Source: Candidatus Parvarchaeum acidiphilum ARMAN-4 (GTDB lineage Archaea; Nanobdellota; Nanobdellia; Parvarchaeales; Parvarchaeaceae). From it: a stretch of 62,191 nt of DNA. The stretch lies in the NCBI GenBank assembly GCA_002412065.1, contig GG730049.1, positions 1 through 62,191 on the forward strand, read 5' to 3'. Below, in pieces: positions 33,313-50,115 of the stretch (position 1 is the stretch's first letter; each line of letters opens with the position of its first letter). The translations under genes were made by a program, and so were the position numbers. The notes below the pieces were generated by a model, which did no database searches, was not told the DNA's origin, and was given only the letters and a program-made list of their open reading frames with translations.

Positions 33313-33864
33313 ATGAGAGTAATAGTTTCAGGACTTACTGCTTCTGGCAAATCAAGTGTTGCTACTAGTCTTGCTCTTAATTTTGGTATCGAATATTTCT
33401 CAGCAAGTTCTAAATTAAGAGATTTGCTTCCAAAGAAGGATTTTATGGTCTGGGAGTCAAAAAAAGGAATAGATGCTGTAAAATTTAGATTAAATAACCC
33501 CCAATATGATAAAAAACTTGATTCCTTTATCCTTTCCCATTTTAAATCAAAAAATGATGTTATATTGGATAGTTGGGTAGCGCCTTGGAAGATAAAAGAC
33601 AAAGAAACCATAAAAATTTATATAAAAGCAGAAGAAAGTGTTAGGGCTAAAAGAGTAAGTATTCGCGATAAAATAAGGTTAGAAGATGCCTATAAATTTA
33701 TGAAACAAAAAGATACTCTAACAAAAAGTATTTACAAAAAAATATATAAAATAGAAATAGACAAAGATTTTACTCCTTTTAATTTGGTAGTAGATTCCTC
33801 GAATATAGACTTAAATAGTGTTATACAAATTTGTTCAGACTTTATAATGAATCAGCAGAAATAA
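33313..33864 (+). CDS. cmk: Cytidylate kinase, archaeal type
   Basis: P-loop SGLTASGKSS; about 180 aa; located upstream of cbf5 as in many archaea. Confidence 0.55.
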   Translation: MRVIVSGLTASGKSSVATSLALNFGIEYFSASSKLRDLLPKKDFMVWESKKGIDAVKFRLNNPQYDKKLDSFILSHFKSKNDVILDSWVAPWKIKDKETIKIYIKAEESVRAKRVSIRDKIRLEDAYKFMKQKDTLTKSIYKKIYKIEIDKDFTPFNLVVDSSNIDLNSVIQICSDFIMNQQK

Positions 33865-33964
33865 GGTAATCGAGTTTATTTTTATACTCTATTCTTTTTA
33901 GGTGCTATTTTTTTATTATGCCGCTAAAGTAAAGCTTTAATCTTTTGACATACGATTTAATATA

Positions 33965-34975
33965 ATGAAACTGCCTTTGGAGGATTTCAAACATGAAATT
34001 TTTTCCTTAAGAGAGGAAGAAACCGACAGCAGATACGGTAAAGCTCCAAAGGATAGAAGCATATCGGAGAGGATAAACTACGGTTTTATACTACTTGATA
34101 AACCAGCAGGTATAAGGTCTAAAACTGCAGCCTACATAGCCAAGAATATTATGACGGGATTAGGTGCAAAGAAGATGGGTTATTCAGGGACTTTAGAATA
34201 TTGAAGAAATCCCAACGTAACTGGTCTTCTGCCCTTAGCCATAAATAACGCTACTAAGGTTCTCCCAGTGCTTCTTTTTGGAGGAAAGGAATATATAGCT
34301 CTGATGCATCTGCACAGCGAAGTTGATGAGCAATTACTTAGAGATACGTTTGACAAATTCATAGGTAAAATAATGCAATTACCTCCGGTTAGATCGCATG
34401 TTAAGCGGCAGTACAGGCAGAGAGAGATCTATTATTCTGATATTTTAGAAATAAATGGAAGAGATGTTCTTTTTAAAGTCGGAGTAGAATCAGGAACCTA
34501 TATAAGAAAACTTATACATGATATGGGAGAAGAGCTAAAAGTTGGTGCACATATGGTTGAGTTGAGGCGAACAAAGGTTTCAACTTTATCAGAAAAAGAT
34601 AATTTAGTTACACTGCAGGATTTAGACGATGCGGTTTATTTTTATGAAAAAGAAAATGATGATAAGTTATTAAACAAATGTCTTGATAGCATAGAGTCAG
34701 CAGTTGATTTTATACCAAAAGTTTTTATTTCAGATGGTGCAGTTGACCCGGTATGTCGTGGTTCACCTCTTGCTGTTCCAGGTATAGTTAAATTTAATGA
34801 TTTTGGAAAAGAGGAGGTTGTAGGAATAATGACACTAAAAGGTGAATTAATAGCACTTGGAAAGGCCGTAATGTCAGCAGATGAAATAAAGAGCTTTAAG
34901 AAAGGCATAGCAGTTAAAACAGACAGTGTAATAATGAAGATAGATACCTATCCTAAATATGAAAAGATTAATTAA
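33965..34975 (+). CDS. cbf5: tRNA/rRNA pseudouridine synthase Cbf5 (TruB family, PUA domain), interrupted by a 12-nt stop-containing insert
   Basis: LLDKPAGIRS, GYSGTL[insert]PNVTGLLP, GKEYIALMHLH, PPVRSHVKR, ESGTYIRKL and a C-terminal PUA domain. Single continuous frame except TGA at 34202-34204. Confidence 0.9.
34197..34208 (+). other. Candidate bulge-helix-bulge-type mini-intron in cbf5 mRNA (12 nt, AAUAUUGAAGAA)
   Basis: Its removal restores GTLDPNVTG. Flanked by helix GGGA/UCCC, a 3-nt AAA bulge and the 4-bp helix CUUU/GAAG. Confidence 0.55.
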
Positions 34976-34999
34976 AAAGATATACTAATTATTCAATAA

Positions 35000-35073
35000 G
35001 GGGTGGTGATCTAGCTTGGTATGATGCTAGCTTCGGGGGTTAGTTGACCTGGGTTCAAATCCCAGCCACCCCA
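35000..35073 (+). tRNA. tRNA-Pro (anticodon CGG)
   Basis: Acceptor GGGGTGG/CCACCCC; anticodon stem CTAGC/GTTAG with loop TTCGGGG; T-arm CTGGG-TTCAAAT-CCCAG. Confidence 0.85.
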
Positions 35074-35169
35074 TACTTTATTGTGCTTTACATGTTTTAT
35101 CGCTGATCTACTAATTAAATGGTTTTTATATTATTAGTAATAACAAAGAATAAGATAACTATAATATTT

Positions 35170-36330
35170 TTAGGCATTTCTAAGAAGTGATGTAGCAATT
35201 ATTGATATAATTATTGTTGCTAATACTGCTATAGAGTAAGCCGAATTAGTTATAACTCCTATCTCAAATGCAACAGTTGCAATAGCTATTCCTACAGCTC
35301 CTCTACCATTTATTATGGCGCTTATCTTTATTCTCCAAGGTTTTTTCTTTACATTCATTATTTTTTTAGAATAAAAGAAATTTAATAATACTGAGAAGAC
35401 TATAACAGAAACAGATATAATAATTATTGCCGGCATATAAATATAAAGCGAATGGAATGAAGAAACATCAATTCCAGCTATCCCAAAGAAAATTGGTATG
35501 AAAAAACCATCATTCATCCTTTTTATTGTTTTGCTAACTTTTCTAAATAACGTTCTGCCTATTAGCCCCTCATGTATAATCAAACCCGCAAAGAAAACTC
35601 CTATTATGTAGTTTACGCCAATTAACTGAGATACTCCTCCAGTTAGCAAGCCTATAATAATTATCATGGCATAACCAAAATGCTCACTCTTTAATATTTT
35701 TTTAGATTTTGTTAATTGTTTTCTTAGTTTTTCACTTCCCCTATTCAAGATTTTATCCACGTTTAAGAATATCATAAGAAATACTATGAAATATACCACT
35801 AGTAGTATGGCATTCAATGCGCTTTTGTAAGTTATCCCTAAGAGCAAAAATGCGATTACATCAGTTACTACTACCGAGCCTATAATTGTTATCCCCTTCG
35901 GATCTCTTGCTAGTCTATACCTAAGAACCAAAACAGATACTATTGAGATAGAGGGAACAGCGATTGCTAGTGAAACTATAAAATCCTGTCTTAATCCAAA
36001 GTGTAGTAAAAGAACTGAAAGTGTAACAGATAGGATTAAAGGCAAAATAAAACTAGTAATAGACATTTTGAGAGAGGGTTTAAGATATTTTATAACTGAT
36101 TCTGTTTTCATTTCTATTCCCAATAAAAATATTATAAAGAAAAGTGAAAGCGAAGATAATGCCTGTAATTCTAAGTTATTTTGTATTAAATTAAAGACAA
36201 ACGGTCCTACAATTAACCCTGCAATAAGATAACCCACAACTGAAGGAAACTTAAGCTGTTCAAATAGCTCCCCAATGATTATTGAACTAGCCAGTACTAT
36301 CAAAATTTCTATTATTATATTTAATGCCAT
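35170..36330 (-). CDS. Cation:proton antiporter (CPA2/Kef-type Na+/H+ or K+/H+ exchanger)
   Basis: N-terminal IIIGELFEQLKFPSVVGYLIAGLIVGP signature and about 11-12 transmembrane segments. Confidence 0.7.
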   Translation of the reverse strand: MALNIIIEILIVLASSIIIGELFEQLKFPSVVGYLIAGLIVGPFVFNLIQNNLELQALSSLSLFFIIFLLGIEMKTESVIKYLKPSLKMSITSFILPLILSVTLSVLLLHFGLRQDFIVSLAIAVPSISIVSVLVLRYRLARDPKGITIIGSVVVTDVIAFLLLGITYKSALNAILLVVYFIVFLMIFLNVDKILNRGSEKLRKQLTKSKKILKSEHFGYAMIIIIGLLTGGVSQLIGVNYIIGVFFAGLIIHEGLIGRTLFRKVSKTIKRMNDGFFIPIFFGIAGIDVSSFHSLYIYMPAIIIISVSVIVFSVLLNFFYSKKIMNVKKKPWRIKISAIINGRGAVGIAIATVAFEIGVITNSAYSIAVLATIIISIIATSLLRNA

Positions 36331-36426
36331 ATTTTTAAATTGTTTTAAGTGTATAAATCAATTTTTATATTATAAATAGGTTATGAATAGTAAGCGTTTT
36401 ATTATAAGCATATTTTAAACTATGAT

Positions 36427-36509
36427 GCAGAGGTAGCGAAGCGGTCAAACGTGTAAGGCTAAGGACCTTATGGCTTAGGCCTTCGAGGGTTCAAATCCCT
36501 CCCTCTGCA
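36427..36509 (+). tRNA. tRNA-Leu with apparent anticodon AAG (near-identical copy of the 9571..9653 gene)
   Basis: Same cloverleaf as the first tRNA-Leu. It differs only at position 10 (G vs A) and at wobble position 34 (loop CTAAGGA vs CTTAGGA). Confidence 0.8.
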
Positions 36510-36558
36510 ATTGAGATTAAAAAAGTATAAATACTAAGGAGCTTTATAAAATAGAATT

Positions 36559-36852
36559 ATGTCAATAACAGGAAATGGTTTGCACAGGCGTTCAAGGAAG
36601 AGATTGAAGTTAGATATAAAAGAAAGGGGGAAAGTCAACATAAAAAAGGCTTTGCAGTCCTTTGAGGTAGGGGATAAAGTAATTATAGATCCAGATTCAA
36701 GGATTCAAAGAAATCTGCCGCAAAGAAGTTTTTTTGGTTCAGTTGGTAAGATAATAGAAAAGAAAGGGAAAGCATATACGGTAGAGGTAAAGCAGCAGGG
36801 CAAAAGCCTTAAAAGGATAGACCTTTTACCAGTTCATATAAAGAGACTTTAA
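36559..36852 (+). CDS. rpl21e: 50S ribosomal protein L21e
   Basis: 97 aa; FEVGDKVIIDPD...GKIIEKKGKAYTVEV pattern. Starts the L21e-RpoF-DUF655 gene order conserved in archaea. Confidence 0.8.
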   Translation: MSITGNGLHRRSRKRLKLDIKERGKVNIKKALQSFEVGDKVIIDPDSRIQRNLPQRSFFGSVGKIIEKKGKAYTVEVKQQGKSLKRIDLLPVHIKRL

Positions 36853-36853
36853 A

Positions 36854-37177
36854 ATGGAATACGAAATAATAGATGAAAAATTTTTGAGCGAAACGGAAGT
36901 TAAGGAAAAATATCTAGATTTTGTAGATAAAGGTTCAGAAATAGGTAAAAAACTTCTAGATCACGTGCAAAAGAATATAAAAATAGATAACTTTGATAGT
37001 GTATTTGAAGAGATATCTGCACTTAATCTCAACATAAGAGACGATTATACAAGAATGATTATTGATGTATCTCCTACTTCCGCCGATCAATTAAGGGCCA
37101 TTATATCTCCATTAAAATTGAATGTAAAAGAAGAGGATCTAAAGGCCATTCTAACGGTGCTAAAAAAGCATTTATAA
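36854..37177 (+). CDS. rpo4: DNA-directed RNA polymerase subunit Rpo4 (RpoF)
   Basis: About 107 aa acidic helical protein in the conserved position between L21e and DUF655. Confidence 0.55.
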   Translation: MEYEIIDEKFLSETEVKEKYLDFVDKGSEIGKKLLDHVQKNIKIDNFDSVFEEISALNLNIRDDYTRMIIDVSPTSADQLRAIISPLKLNVKEEDLKAILTVLKKHL

Positions 37178-37197
37178 CCTTAAATAATCCTTATACT

Positions 37198-37728
37198 ATG
37201 GGAAAAGATGAATACGCTTATGTTTTAGAATACCTTCCTTTCGGTCTGCAAGACTCTAAGGACAGAAAGGCTACCGCCATAGTTCTAACGGATTCGCTTG
37301 GTTTACTATTAGTAGCACTTAAAAAAGATGTAAAAGTAGATCCAGGCATGAAGGTTTATATTGGGGAAAACAAAAGAGAAGAGGTACACCACATTATACA
37401 AAGAATTACTCCGGATAAATTAAATGGAACTGGCCTTCAAATGCTTACAGATAAAATACATGAGATTGTAGCTGAAAATGAATCAAATTATATTAGCATA
37501 ATAAATAGGCTTGGGCCAATAAACGTAAGACTACACTCATTAGCGCTTATACCCGGTGCAGGTAAAAAAATGGTTCAAAAAATAATGGAAGAACGCAGTA
37601 AAGGGGAATTCAAGTCTTATAAAGATTTTGATGATAGGGTTGGTTTTACTTCAGGTATTGCTAAAAGCATAGAAAATAGAATAAAAGAAGAGCTTGATAA
37701 CACTGATAAGTACAAAATATTCACTTAG
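37198..37728 (+). CDS. DUF655 (COG1491) predicted RNA-binding protein with helix-hairpin-helix
   Basis: YAYVLEYLPFG start, GENKREEV...I and a C-terminal HhH-like region; conserved neighbour of RpoF. Confidence 0.6.
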   Translation: MGKDEYAYVLEYLPFGLQDSKDRKATAIVLTDSLGLLLVALKKDVKVDPGMKVYIGENKREEVHHIIQRITPDKLNGTGLQMLTDKIHEIVAENESNYISIINRLGPINVRLHSLALIPGAGKKMVQKIMEERSKGEFKSYKDFDDRVGFTSGIAKSIENRIKEELDNTDKYKIFT

Positions 37729-37839
37729 GGGTTGTAGTCTAACCAGGCAGAATAGGCGGCTCCAGCTTGTCTGGAAACATGACGTTAAGGATGATTAAGA
37801 AGAAACCGCTTGACCCAGGTTCAAATCCTGGCAACCCCA
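37728..37839 (+). tRNA. tRNA-Trp (anticodon CCA) with a 39-nt intron at the canonical 37/38 position
   Basis: Acceptor GGGGTTG/CAACCCC; anticodon stem GGCGG/CCGCT with loop CTCCAG|intron|A; T-arm CCAGG-TTCAAAT-CCTGG. Confidence 0.85.
37766..37804 (+). other. tRNA-Trp intron (BHB-type)
   Basis: Central helix CUCC (37760-37763) / GAAG (37799-37802) with one C-A mismatch. 3-nt bulges AGC (37764-37766) and AAA (37803-37805). Short inner helix UUG/UAA. Confidence 0.75.
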
Positions 37840-46257: not shown

Positions 46258-47754
46258 ATTCCAGTTGATCCTGCTGGAGGTCACTGCTATTGGGATTCGA
46301 ATGAGACATGCAAGTTCATCTATTAGGTAATAGTAGATTGCGTACGGCTGAGGCAACACATAGATAACGTAACGTTATGAGGAGGATATCCTCGGGAAAC
46401 TGAGGTTAATACTCCATAGCAATAATTTTTGAAATAATTTTATTGTGAAAGGTTATTTCTAATACCGAAATAATACGCATAACGATCGGTCTATGCCTGA
46501 TTAGACTGTTGGTGAGGTAACGGCTCACCAAATCTTAGATCAGTAGGGGCCATGGAAGTGGTTTCCCCCAGAAGGGTACTGAGACAAGGACCCTAGCACT
46601 ACGGTGTGCAGCAGTCCCGAAAACTCCACAATGCGCGAAAGCGTGATGAGGGAATCCCAAGTGTTCTTTCCGTTTCGGAAGGAACTTTTGCCACGTTTTG
46701 AAATGGCGTGGCGAATAAGGGCTGGGCAAGCGGGTGCCAGCAGCCGCGGTAATACCTGCGGCCCGAGTTGTGACCATTATTATTGAGTCTAAAGCGTTCG
46801 TAGCTGGTTTGGATAGTTGGTGCTTAAATCTTTTCGTTTAACGGAAAGGCACGGTATAAATACTTCTAGACTAGAGGCCGGGAGGGGAGATGGGAACTTT
46901 TCGGGTAGGAGTAAAATCCTTTAATCCGAAAAAGACCACCAATAGCGAAGGCACATCTCCAGAACGGACCTGACGGTGAGGGACGAAGGCTAGGAGAACA
47001 AACCGGATTAGATACCCGGGTAGCCCTAGCAGTAAACGCTGCTTACTATACGTTGCATTTCCTTGAGGAAATGCAGTGTGACAGCGAAGGCGTTAAGTAA
47101 GCCACTTGGGGAGTATAATCGCAAGGTCGAAACTTAAAGGAATTGGCGGGGGAGCACAAAAACGGGTGAAATTTGCGGTTTAATTGGATTCAACTCCGGG
47201 AATCTTACCAGAAGCGACAGCAATATGAAGGTCAGTCTGAAGAACTTACCAAATGCGCTGAAAGGTGTTGCATGGCCATCATCAGTTAGTATCTTGAGAC
47301 GTCCCGTTAAGTCGGGTAACTAACAAGACCCTCTTCTATATTTGCTAACATGCAATCCGTTGCGAATGAGCAAAATATAGAGACTGCTTTCGAAAGAAAG
47401 AGGAAGGTGAGGGCGACGGTAGGTCAGTACGACCCTAATCCTCTGGGCTACACGCGAATTGCAATGGTAAAGGCAATAGGATGCCACTCCGAAAGGAGGA
47501 GCTAATCCCCGAATCTTTACCCTAGTTCGAATCGAGGTCTGTAACTCGGCCTCGTGAAGGCGGAATCCGTAGTAACCGCGTTTCAACAAAGCGCGGTGAA
47601 TACTTTCCTGCTCATTGCACACACTGCCCGTCAAACCAAACAAGTTGGATTTAGATGAGATTGTCGTTATGCGATAACCGAATCTAGGTTCAGTGAGTAG
47701 GGTTAAGTCGCCACAAGGTAGCCGTATGGGAACATGCGGCTGGATCACCTCCTT
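46258..47754 (+). rRNA. rrs: 16S (SSU) ribosomal RNA, archaeal, divergent
   Basis: 5' ATTCCAGTTGATCCTGCTGGAGG; GTGCCAGCAGCCGCGGTAATAC; GGATTAGATACCC; AAACTTAAAGGAATTGGCGGGGG; 3' GGCTGGATCACCTCCT. Confidence 0.95.
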
Positions 47755-47844: not shown

Positions 47845-50115
47845 ATGATAGATTTACCGAAGGAGACATTAGAATTTTTTGATAACGATGAATTAAGGTC
47901 TAGAATTTTTTATGAAAAGTATTCACTTTCTGATTTAGAAGGGAATAGAACAGAAAAAACACCTATAGAGATGTGGAAAAGAATTTCAAGAGAATTAGCA
48001 AGTGTAGAAAAGGACGATAAAAAAAAGGACATAGAGAATAATTTTTATCGGTTATTGGAAGATTTTAAGTTTGTTCCTGGAGGTAGAATCTTATTTGGAG
48101 CAGGCGCTAATCATAAAGCTACACTACTTAATTGTCATCATTTACCGATCACAAAGGACTCCTTAGAAGCTATTCATGATACTGCTAAGGAGATGGCAAG
48201 AACTTATTCTTATGGTGGCGGCGTAGGTATAGATATCTCAATAGTAAGGCCAGAAAGGAGCAGCAGTGGAATTATGCAGCAAGATTTTCGACTGGCGTCT
48301 GTGTCTTTTATGAAGCTTTATTCTATTACTACTGGAATAATAGGCCAAACTGGAAGAAGAGGGGCGTGGATGATAACTTTAGATGTTACTCATCCAGACA
48401 TAGAGAGTTTTGTTACTATAAAAAAAGACAAAAAAAGCGTTAGATATGCAAACATAAGTGTAAAGGTATATGATGACTTTATGGATGCGGTTGAGAATGA
48501 TAAGATTTTTACTCTGCATTTTAAGAATGAAAAAGTAGAATTTAAGAAAGAAATAAAAGCATTGGATCTATGGAAGAAAAGAATTGATACTGCAGTTAAT
48601 ACTGGTGATCCAGGAATAATGTTCTGGGACAGAATGAAAAGTGAATCACCAACAGAATATGATGAAAAAATGGCCATAAAAGGGACAAATCCTTGTAGTG
48701 AGCAACCTTTAGAAAATTATGGTGCGTGCGATTTAGGAGCAATAAATCTAGATTATTTTGTAAAGAATCAGTGCACAGACAAGGCAGAAGTAGACTGGGA
48801 AAATTTAGATAAAACAGTACGTTATGGAGTGAGATTTCTTGACAATGTATTGGATTATAGTTATAATCGTCATGCCTTAAAAGAACAAGCAGATGAAACT
48901 GTTTATGCAAGAAGGATCGGTCTTGGGATAATGGGTCTTGCAAATATGTTGATAAGCATGAATCTTAGATATGACAGTGACAAAGCAATCGAGTTCGTAG
49001 ACTCTTTAATGAAAAAAATAAAGGAAACTGCTTATGATGAAAGTTCGAATCTTGCAGTTGAAAAAGGTTCATTCCCTGCTTTTGTAGCAGAAAAACATCT
49101 ACAGAGAAATTTTGTAAAGAGGCTAGATAAAAAGCTTTTAGATAAAATATCAAAGAATGGCTTAAGAAATGCATGTATACTTACTGTTGCTCCAACAGGA
49201 TCAATTTCTTCAATGGCCGGAGTGAGTGGTGGGATAGAACCTATTTGCGCTTTAAGTTATACTCGTAGATCAGAGTCTTTGTCTGAAGGGAAGTTTGAAG
49301 TTTTAGATCCTTTTGTAAAAAGATACATGGATAAATTTAAAATAAGAGACAAAAGTACGCTTCCTGAGCTTTTTGTTACTGCGCACAAGATAGATCCTTT
49401 CTTTAGGGTAAAGATGCAGGCTACAATACAAAAACACATTGATTCATCAATATCATCAACTGTAAATCTATCAGCAGATACAGATGCTGAAACTGTGGAT
49501 AAAATATACAGATATGCGTGGAAACTTGGTTGTAAGTCTATAACCGTTTATAGAGAAGGTTCAAAAGATGATATACTTAAAGCAACCGATGAAAAACCTG
49601 CAAAAGAAGAAGAAAAATTAATTGAGGAGGAAAGGCCATTCCTGCTTAATGGTACTACTATAAGGATGCCAACTTCACAGGGAAACATGTATCTTACAGT
49701 AAATAGAGATGAAAATGCAAAGATTAAAGAAGTATTTATAGATATGGGAAGGTCTGGAGAGACGGAAAAAAGTTTTACAGAAGCACTAGGTAGGCTTATA
49801 AGCATATATCTTCAATCTGGAGGGGATATAAATAGAGTCATACGTACTCTTAAAGGAATAAAGGGAGGTAACTCGCTTTGGTTTAATGGCATACAGGTAT
49901 TTTCTATTCCAGATGGAATTGCTAAAGCAATAGAACTTACTCTAAAAAATAGAGATCCTACCAAAGAAAACGAAACTCTACATGGCGTTTTGAAAAACAA
50001 GGATAGTTTAGAAAATGACAAAGCAACAGTGTGTCCGGAATGTCACCAGAAAACACTTATATTTGAAAATGGGTGTTTTATTTGTAAGAATTGTGGATAT
50101 ACCAAATGTGAGTAA
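47845..50115 (+). CDS. nrdJ: Ribonucleotide reductase, class II (adenosylcobalamin-dependent, NrdJ-like) with C-terminal zinc ribbon
   Basis: YGGGVGIDIS, NPCSEQPL, TVAPTGSIS and C-terminal CPEC...CKNCG motifs. Confidence 0.85.
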   Translation: MIDLPKETLEFFDNDELRSRIFYEKYSLSDLEGNRTEKTPIEMWKRISRELASVEKDDKKKDIENNFYRLLEDFKFVPGGRILFGAGANHKATLLNCHHLPITKDSLEAIHDTAKEMARTYSYGGGVGIDISIVRPERSSSGIMQQDFRLASVSFMKLYSITTGIIGQTGRRGAWMITLDVTHPDIESFVTIKKDKKSVRYANISVKVYDDFMDAVENDKIFTLHFKNEKVEFKKEIKALDLWKKRIDTAVNTGDPGIMFWDRMKSESPTEYDEKMAIKGTNPCSEQPLENYGACDLGAINLDYFVKNQCTDKAEVDWENLDKTVRYGVRFLDNVLDYSYNRHALKEQADETVYARRIGLGIMGLANMLISMNLRYDSDKAIEFVDSLMKKIKETAYDESSNLAVEKGSFPAFVAEKHLQRNFVKRLDKKLLDKISKNGLRNACILTVAPTGSISSMAGVSGGIEPICALSYTRRSESLSEGKFEVLDPFVKRYMDKFKIRDKSTLPELFVTAHKIDPFFRVKMQATIQKHIDSSISSTVNLSADTDAETVDKIYRYAWKLGCKSITVYREGSKDDILKATDEKPAKEEEKLIEEERPFLLNGTTIRMPTSQGNMYLTVNRDENAKIKEVFIDMGRSGETEKSFTEALGRLISIYLQSGGDINRVIRTLKGIKGGNSLWFNGIQVFSIPDGIAKAIELTLKNRDPTKENETLHGVLKNKDSLENDKATVCPECHQKTLIFENGCFICKNCGYTKCE

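Follow-up and report, generated by a model that had tools for sequence, protein, structure and literature searches.

We analyzed the cbf5 gene in a 62,191-nt stretch of the Candidatus Parvarchaeum acidiphilum ARMAN-4 genome (GenBank assembly GCA_002412065.1, contig GG730049.1), hereafter the window, which has 33% G+C and carries an archaeal 16S rRNA gene. The gene belongs to the Cbf5/TruB pseudouridine synthase family, and it is interrupted by 12 nt at 34197-34208, inside the codon for the catalytic Asp of the GTLDP motif. These 12 nt very probably form an archaeal-type pre-mRNA intron that is spliced by the endonuclease EndA and is of the same kind as the intron of crenarchaeal cbf5. A sequence-only reading of the window had proposed a 12-nt EndA-type intron in a cbf5 gene of the DPANN superphylum, and the proposal gained support from conservation of the insert at the same site in relatives, sequence variation confined to its loop, the existence of a 16-nt form, and codons frozen around the junction.

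The cbf5 frame spans 33965-34975 on the forward strand and, as that reading had stated, contains one in-frame stop, the TGA at 34202-34204; the local translation is GYSGTLEY-stop-RNPNVTG. Deleting 34197-34208 (AATATTGAAGAA) gives the codons GGG ACT TTA GAT CCC and a 332-aa open reading frame (ORF) with the sequence GTLDPNVTG. The alternative deletion that had been offered, 34198-34209, leaves an identical sequence and the identical 332-aa ORF. Over its full length, the repaired Cbf5 aligned with solved archaeal Cbf5 structures, leaving GTLDP free of gaps, and its top structure match was the Cbf5 of P. abyssi (2AUS, E=4.4e-90, gap-free).

Exon 1 (33965-34196, forward strand) covers the DKCLD domain together with the beginning of TruB_N; its last base, a G, is the first base of the catalytic Asp codon. 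The intron (AAUAUUGAAGAA, 34197-34208, forward strand) includes the in-frame UGA at 34202-34204. Exon 2 (34209-34975, forward strand) opens with the AU that completes the Asp codon, codes for the remainder of TruB_N followed by TruB_C_2 and PUA, and ends with the stop TAA at 34973-34975. The interruption, between G and AU, is thus in phase 1. The predicted spliced junction reads GGGACUUUAG joined to AUCCCAAC, 12 nt shorter than the DNA (16 nt shorter for the L028/L030 type described below), and the tryptic peptide predicted across the junction of the repaired protein is MGYSGTLDPNVTGLLPLAINNATK.

The insert among Parvarchaeota

The nearest Cbf5 relatives of the window protein come from Candidatus Parvarchaeota/Parvarchaeum (ARMAN-4/5-like) genomes from acid mine drainage. 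We found an insert at the identical nucleotide, 232 nt from the ATG, in 23 Parvarchaeota genomes that are GTDB species representatives (listed as L001-L015, L017, L024-L028, and L030, where L014 is ARMAN-5), and likewise at the same cbf5 position in L082-L087. On removal of the insert, every copy not cut by a contig end yielded an ORF of 331-340 aa. The 12-nt consensus in relatives is AANNNUGAAGAA, with variation restricted to nucleotides 3-5; nucleotides 1, 2, and 6-12 are invariant. The sequence-only reading had considered that relatives might carry the same four-codon insertion with no stop. Instead, all 12-nt copies keep the UGA, and the longer copies shift the frame.

These longer copies, in L028, L030 (Ca. 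Acidifodinimicrobium mancum), and L082, carry a 16-nt version, UGUGAUUCACAAAGAA, whose length is not divisible by three and which therefore cannot be an in-frame insertion. A single register (UUAG↓U ... AA↓A, arrows marking cuts) restores the Asp in the 16-nt copies, and this settles the register of the 12-nt form, ambiguous on its own: the cuts between 34196 and 34197 and between 34208 and 34209 that had been predicted for the window are the only ones that the 16-nt relatives allow. The 16-nt version can be drawn as a complete hBHBh′ bulge-helix-bulge (BHB) motif, with a 5′ bulge AG↓U, an inner helix GUG/CAC, a loop AUU, a central helix CUUU/AAAG, a 3′ bulge AA↓A, and an outer helix GGGA/UCCC. 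The 12-nt form may be read as this motif with its inner helix cut to one possible A-U pair; the lengths break down as 16 = 1+3+3+3+4+2 and 12 = 1+1+3+1+4+2. An in-frame UGA occurs in both introns, at different intron positions, and unspliced mRNA would therefore always stop early. When metagenomes were scanned for length variants (TCAGGGACTTTAG N6-36 AAATCC...GTNACNGG), only two contigs were recovered, both of the types described above.

The codons around the junction show constraint at the RNA level. Among 115 amino-acid-invariant, degenerate codon columns in 21 intron-bearing genes, 5 use a single codon, and 4 of these are the consecutive positions G75 (GGG), T76 (ACU), L77 (UUA), and D78 (GAU). 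The next codon, P79, is CCC except in two intron-bearing genes with CCU, where a G-U pair is preserved. The intron-less Parvarchaeota genes (n=7) use two to six different codons at each junction position. At the junction codons, synonymous sites are fixed only in genomes with the intron. Median dN/dS among the intron-bearing relatives was 0.14 in exon 1 and 0.06 in exon 2. With both exons under purifying selection, a pseudogene is excluded, and translation of the downstream part alone fits poorly.

The intron-less genes form a Parvarchaeota subclade (L016, L018-L023) with uninterrupted GTLDP and relaxed synonymous codons there. We built neighbor-joining trees of Cbf5 with 300 bootstraps; as single-gene distance trees, they are indicative only. 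The Parvarchaeota clade received 100% support, the intron-less group was monophyletic in 87% of replicates and nested among intron bearers in 100%, and the intron bearers were monophyletic in none. This nesting implies a precise secondary loss. The intron-bearing lineages span Parvarchaeum-like and Acidifodinimicrobium-like groups, and the simplest reading of the trees would be one intron gain at the base of the Parvarchaeota followed by one precise loss.

RNA fold and splicing endonuclease

We folded the RNA around the junction and applied the EndA rule, by which cleavage follows the second nucleotide of each 3-nt bulge flanking a 4-bp helix. The core bulge-helix-loop, or mini-BHB, motif lies at 34187-34213 on the forward strand and is delineated by the minimum free energy (MFE) structure from RNAfold, the computed energies, pairing in 23 sequences, and the frozen codons. 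Its outer helix pairs GGGA (34187-34190) with UCCC (34210-34213), and its central helix pairs CUUU (34191-34194) with GAAG (34203-34206). RNAfold places a 3′ bulge AAA at 34207-34209, where the rule sets the 3′ splice site between 34208 and 34209; the 5′ site, between 34196 and 34197, falls within A-G-A (34195-34197). The fold drawn by hand in the sequence-only reading held for both helices and the AAA bulge. It had left 34195-34202 wholly unpaired, and here RNAfold adds a pair between A34195 and U34202.

By intron position, A1 is the third nucleotide of the 5′ bulge, A2-U6 is a possible 1-bp inner helix, nucleotides 3-5 form the loop, G7-G10 supply the 3′ strand of the central helix, and A11-A12 are the first two nucleotides of the 3′ bulge. 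The computed energies of the 12-nt form were +0.5 kcal/mol for the A2-U6 mini-BHB, -4.4 kcal/mol for the bulge-helix-loop, and -5.7 kcal/mol for the MFE structure, which includes the 3′ bulge and both helices. The 5′ site of this form sits in the loop, which makes it a relaxed bulge-helix-loop. The window's 12-nt intron does not have the canonical hBHBh′ motif, its inner helix amounting to at most one A-U pair closing a 3-nt loop, as had been anticipated in describing it as a relaxed motif with no inner helix.

All 23 sequences (100%) keep both the outer and the central helix paired, one GC to GU change included, and pairing bases are kept while loop nucleotides 3-5 drift. A longer exon-exon helix encloses the motif. 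Its 5′ strand runs from 34170 to 34183 (34170-34176 and 34178-34183) and its 3′ strand from 34217 to 34230 (34217-34222 and 34224-34230), both on the forward strand, as predicted by RNAfold and compared with relatives. The 67-nt stretch containing it (34167-34233) had z=-4.23, and 0 of 200 shuffles were as stable. Among relatives, 89% of cells in this helix are paired, with a few compensated changes. Intron-bearing lineages showed the same nested architecture with a mean z of -2.9 (n=22); for intron-less sequences, the mean was -0.84 (n=18) and the helix was not predicted.

From these features we propose a mechanism. In the cbf5 transcript, exon GGGA would pair with UCCC of exon 2 as the outer helix, and exon CUUU would pair with GAAG at the 3′ end of the intron as the 4-bp central helix, leaving a 3′ bulge AA↓A and a 5′ site AG↓A that borders a small loop. 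The longer exon-exon helix would hold the motif together. EndA would then cut between 34196 and 34197 and between 34208 and 34209, and an RNA ligase would join the exons; the archaeal exon-joining ligase is RtcB. Ligation would rebuild the GAU codon of the catalytic Asp and thereby an mRNA for a normal 332-aa Cbf5. Unspliced mRNA would stop at the intron UGA and give a 79-aa fragment with no catalytic residue. We infer EndA cleavage, exon ligation, and any regulatory role in Parvarchaeota.

The type of endonuclease bears directly on this mechanism. Fujishima et al. (2011) described one EndA in ARMAN-4 and -5, of the typical α4 type and 177 aa long, along with a small number of disrupted tRNAs (PMC3239211). 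The EndA proteins of ARMAN-5 and ARMAN-4 have the accessions EFD92272 and EEZ93328. According to Kaneta et al. (2018; PMC5829648), noncanonical motifs are cut only by (αβ)2 and ε2 enzymes, and the ARMAN-4 enzyme is described as having no L3 loop. If the published 177-aa α4 account is complete, the association with a broad-specificity EndA claimed in the literature does not hold in ARMAN-4/5. As drawn, the 16-nt form is compatible with a strict enzyme, and the 12-nt form is essentially a bulge-helix-loop. The mismatch has three possible readings: the α4 enzyme may be more tolerant than has been supposed, a one-pair inner helix may be enough when the RNA is enzyme bound, or a second subunit may have been missed. 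Haloferax offers a precedent in an mRNA BHB processed by a nonheterotetrameric EndA (PMC7714728). A tblastn search of the window and all compared loci for the EndA gene gave nothing below E=1 with an approximate M. jannaschii EndA sequence as query. Pfam identified no EndA among 8 ORFs of 174-190 aa and two neighboring genes (97 and 107 aa).

The window contains another predicted EndA substrate, the 39-nt intron (37766-37804) at position 37/38 of tRNA-Trp(CCA) (37728-37839, forward strand), a gene that ARAGORN missed and Rfam detected with 43.6 bits. The intron has the same GAAG-AA↓A half-site at its 3′ end, and the GAAG+AAA that had been noted at 37799-37805 indeed marks the end of this intron. 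Its predicted central helix, CUCC/GAAG with a C34·A mismatch, hints at some tolerance. The intron is conserved among relatives, including L019, which has no cbf5 intron. It also contains the box C/D-like strings AUGACG and GAUGAUU.

Competing explanations, annotation, and neighboring genes

Several observations weigh against a spliced intron. The 12-nt form has no real inner helix, and its A2-U6 mini-BHB comes out at a positive energy (+0.5 kcal/mol). For the 16-nt form, the computed energies favor an alternative register (-8.4) over the canonical BHB (-4.4), which is not the MFE structure. Nearly all pairs are invariant within Parvarchaeota, so there is little true covariation. ARMAN-4/5 reportedly have an α4 EndA (PMC3239211), a type said not to cut noncanonical motifs (PMC5829648). 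A collection of 5.8 billion proteins yielded no full-length (spliced) Cbf5 more than 68% identical to the repaired protein. Moreover, chance alone often produces the bare fold geometry, with 41 and 28 occurrences on the window's two strands (∼35 per strand, or ∼5.5e-4 per site) vs. ∼40 per strand in shuffles. We accordingly rejected any significance of the fold alone, which by itself proves nothing, and the case therefore rests on the placement of the motif and on comparison with relatives. What does exceed chance is the position of the fold at the sole junction able to restore the catalytic motif, taken with the comparative evidence.

We see a slim chance that cbf5 is not spliced at all, and that these genomes instead make a truncated or two-piece Cbf5 (a 79-aa DKCLD piece and a C-terminal piece of ∼235-260 aa, the latter as called by gene finders) that lacks the catalytic Asp and serves a noncatalytic role, or carry a decaying pseudogene. 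Public annotations give truncated ORFs of 223-260 aa alone, the spliced product is absent from the 5.8-billion-protein collection, and DPANN genomes are known for split genes. However, purifying selection acts on both parts (dN/dS 0.14 and 0.06), the ORFs are intact in more than 23 species, and a protein-level split explains neither the confinement of the insert to one nucleotide site nor the frozen synonymous sites at pairing bases. No ATG follows the stop, and gene callers pick differing ad hoc starts. The catalytic Asp is also, to our knowledge, essential in every pseudouridine synthase, as is well established. Recoding during translation, whether by UGA read-through, selenocysteine, frameshifting, or ribosomal bypass, is highly improbable. 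It would agree with the in-frame UGA, which all 12-nt copies conserve and the 16-nt copies also have, but the Asp codon is split G↓AU, and GAA UAU UGA AGA AAU cannot decode to Asp. Read-through would add four residues inside GTLDP, the 16-nt copies shift the frame, and matched take-off and landing codons are absent. Furthermore, TGA is an ordinary stop in the window because 16 of the 73 listed ORFs end with it (2 of these ORFs lie inside the 16S gene).

Removal of the insert from the RNA by something other than EndA, namely another nuclease and ligase or a further activity recognizing the conserved UGAAGAA/AAAGAA, is about as improbable as the absence of splicing. It would sidestep the published α4 EndA of ARMAN-4/5, which is expected to need a canonical BHB (PMC3239211 and PMC5829648), and it would suit a 12-nt form with no inner helix whose invariant sequence exceeds the needs of pairing. 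Nevertheless, the EndA rule is matched to the nucleotide in both lengths, nothing in the geometry calls for another activity, the 16-nt variant is a complete BHB, and the same 3′ half-site closes the tRNA-Trp intron at the canonical 37/38. The equivalent crenarchaeal intron was cut by EndA in vitro (PMC2738675), and the Haloferax mRNA BHB is handled by a nonheterotetrameric EndA (PMC7714728). A sequencing or assembly artefact, a concern of the sequence-only reading, has nothing in its favor other than the short length of the insert, and its probability is negligible: the insert recurs in dozens of independent assemblies that different studies obtained at different sites, in two length classes and with loop variants specific to lineages. 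An EndA-spliced intron remains by far the best explanation.

In the protein collection, all close Cbf5 relatives (74-99% identity) are truncated ORFs of 200-260 aa that start just past the motif; relatives at 65-68% identity are full length. The public Cbf5 calls P0011-P0054 are 200-260 aa long, begin at a variety of non-ATG or ad hoc starts, and in several cases bear the name Cbf5. Across Parvarchaeota, public databases thus systematically mis-annotate Cbf5 as a truncated protein of 223-260 aa. Full-text literature searches revealed no earlier account of an intron in cbf5 of Parvarchaeota, ARMAN, or DPANN. According to Schwarz 2020, BHB introns had been reported in two archaeal mRNAs only, the coding sequence of crenarchaeal cbf5 and a Haloferax 5′ untranslated region (UTR) (PMC7714728). 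Parvarchaeota would be a second, phylogenetically remote lineage with a BHB intron in a coding sequence.

Around cbf5, the gene order in 33313-37839 is cytidylate kinase, cbf5, tRNA-Pro, a Na+/H+ exchanger on the opposite strand, tRNA-Leu(AAG), L21e, an Rpb4-like gene, DUF655, and tRNA-Trp. The synteny of the cmk-cbf5 pair is kept in the relatives L084-L087. The tRNA-Leu (36426-36510) has the anticodon AAG, with A at the wobble position, a eukaryote-like decoding feature reported for ARMAN-4/5 (PMC3239211). The ORF at 37996-38970 matches the Pfam family DDAH_eukar (E=8e-105), a "eukaryotic" dimethylarginine dimethylaminohydrolase family, in an archaeal genome. The 16S rRNA gene (46258-47753) is solitary, with no 23S gene in the window and a ribonucleotide reductase (47845-50115) as its downstream neighbor; its flanking sequences pair into a processing stem of ∼22 bp in which a canonical BHB is not evident.

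Comparison with known archaeal introns

We compared the Parvarchaeota insert with the crenarchaeal cbf5 intron using L081, a Sulfolobales-like metagenome contig that was the single candidate from a search with an OCR-derived fragment of S. solfataricus Cbf5. The 23-nt intron of its cbf5 adopts, as the MFE structure, a BHB in which both sites read AG↓A; this sets the intron at a phase-1 site G↓AY, the same as in Parvarchaeota: exon 1 ends ...CUAG, exon 2 begins ACCCC, and the intron lies between the G and AC of the Asp codon. L081 is one imperfect example, of which the intron region alone was used. In L081, cbf5 (621-1369) is broken again near 926, and the called product has an out-of-frame tail; an assembly error or another interruption is possible. 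Besides the work cited below, the crenarchaeal cbf5 intron is reportedly also tied to Watanabe 2002 and Yoshinari 2006. Yokobori 2009 described a 16-44-bp BHB-like cbf5 intron in Desulfurococcales and Sulfolobales that breaks the catalytic residue's codon, with spliced cDNAs and cleavage by EndA in vitro (PMC2738675). The comparison of insert positions suggested by the sequence-only reading thus gave the same nucleotide in the Sulfolobales-like contig and a codon that agrees with the published intron (PMC2738675).

The two introns share the gene and the codon, and in L081 the nucleotide too (G↓AY). Their outer helix (GGGA...) and central helix (CNNU paired with the intron's 3′ end) are built from the same exon bases, and in each lineage the intron strand complements its own exon, GAAG to CUUU in Parvarchaeota and GGGG to CCCU in L081, so that CUUU/GAAG in the one corresponds to CCCU/GGGG in the other. 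Both have the 5′ site AG↓A, are too short for any coding, and appear to follow a pattern of one gain and then nested loss, the loss in the Parvarchaeota subclade being like that described for some Desulfurococcales. In contrast, the Parvarchaeota host belongs to DPANN and not TACK; the intron is 12 nt long (16 nt in two lineages) rather than 16-44 bp, and the 12-nt form is essentially without an inner helix. The EndA of the Parvarchaeum host is reported as α4, whereas the crenarchaeal intron is tied to (αβ)2. Crenarchaeal splicing was shown by cDNA and in vitro cleavage, and Parvarchaeota splicing is deduced from sequence.

The shared site could reflect common ancestry, transfer of the intron only, or convergence at a favored site. 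The nearest relatives of the window Cbf5 outside Parvarchaeota are other DPANN proteins at ∼50% identity, and because the Cbf5 proteins of the two groups are not close, transfer of the whole gene is unlikely. We lean, though not strongly, against a joint reading in which the Parvarchaeota α4 EndA would accurately cut a 12-nt bulge-helix-loop in mRNA and, in addition, the shared site would stem from an intron predating the split with many losses, or from transfer between phyla, and not from convergence.

The Parvarchaeota cbf5 intron is unusual in its new superphylum, in being the shortest so far, and in its apparent mismatch with the type of host endonuclease. Its position at the same nucleotide makes it testable why cbf5 bears an intron and whether the origin was ancient, by transfer, or convergent. 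The natural series of substrates, with a 16-nt full BHB, a 12-nt near-minimal form, and a nested precise loss, can probe the limits of α4 endonucleases. If true, cutting of the 12-nt substrate by an α4 enzyme would overturn the rule that homotetrameric EndA takes the canonical BHB alone and would break the proposed tie of archaeal mRNA splicing to hetero-oligomeric EndA.

Other small archaeal elements offer further comparisons. The 12-bp insertions in protein genes of an archaeal virus, proposed as possible introns by Peng et al. in the part of their work discussed in PMC2738675, are alike in size, in lying within coding sequence, and in having been suggested as introns. They are unlike in that splicing was never shown for them and the frame is kept, so that they are perhaps simply translated; we found no sequence or structural link between them and the cbf5 insert. 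The tRNA introns with relaxed BHB motifs (hBH, HBh′, and bulge-helix-loop, in the nomenclature of Marck and Grosjean 2003 as used in PMC5829648) share with the 12-nt form a 3-nt bulge next to a 4-bp helix, a second site in a loop, and cutting after the second bulge nucleotide. The length of 12 nt is also within the range of 11-175 nt reported for archaeal tRNA introns (PMC2738675). However, the cbf5 intron lies in an mRNA coding region rather than a tRNA, and the tRNA kind is reported to need (αβ)2 or ε2 EndA, types that ARMAN-4/5 reportedly lack. Finally, Schwarz 2020 described an experimentally confirmed BHB intron in the 5′ UTR of the Haloferax volcanii HVO_1309 mRNA (PMC7714728). The Parvarchaeota intron differs from it in lying within a codon and not in the UTR of a different gene, and the Haloferax intron has been confirmed by experiment; both are mRNA BHB substrates in an archaeon without a hetero-tetrameric EndA.

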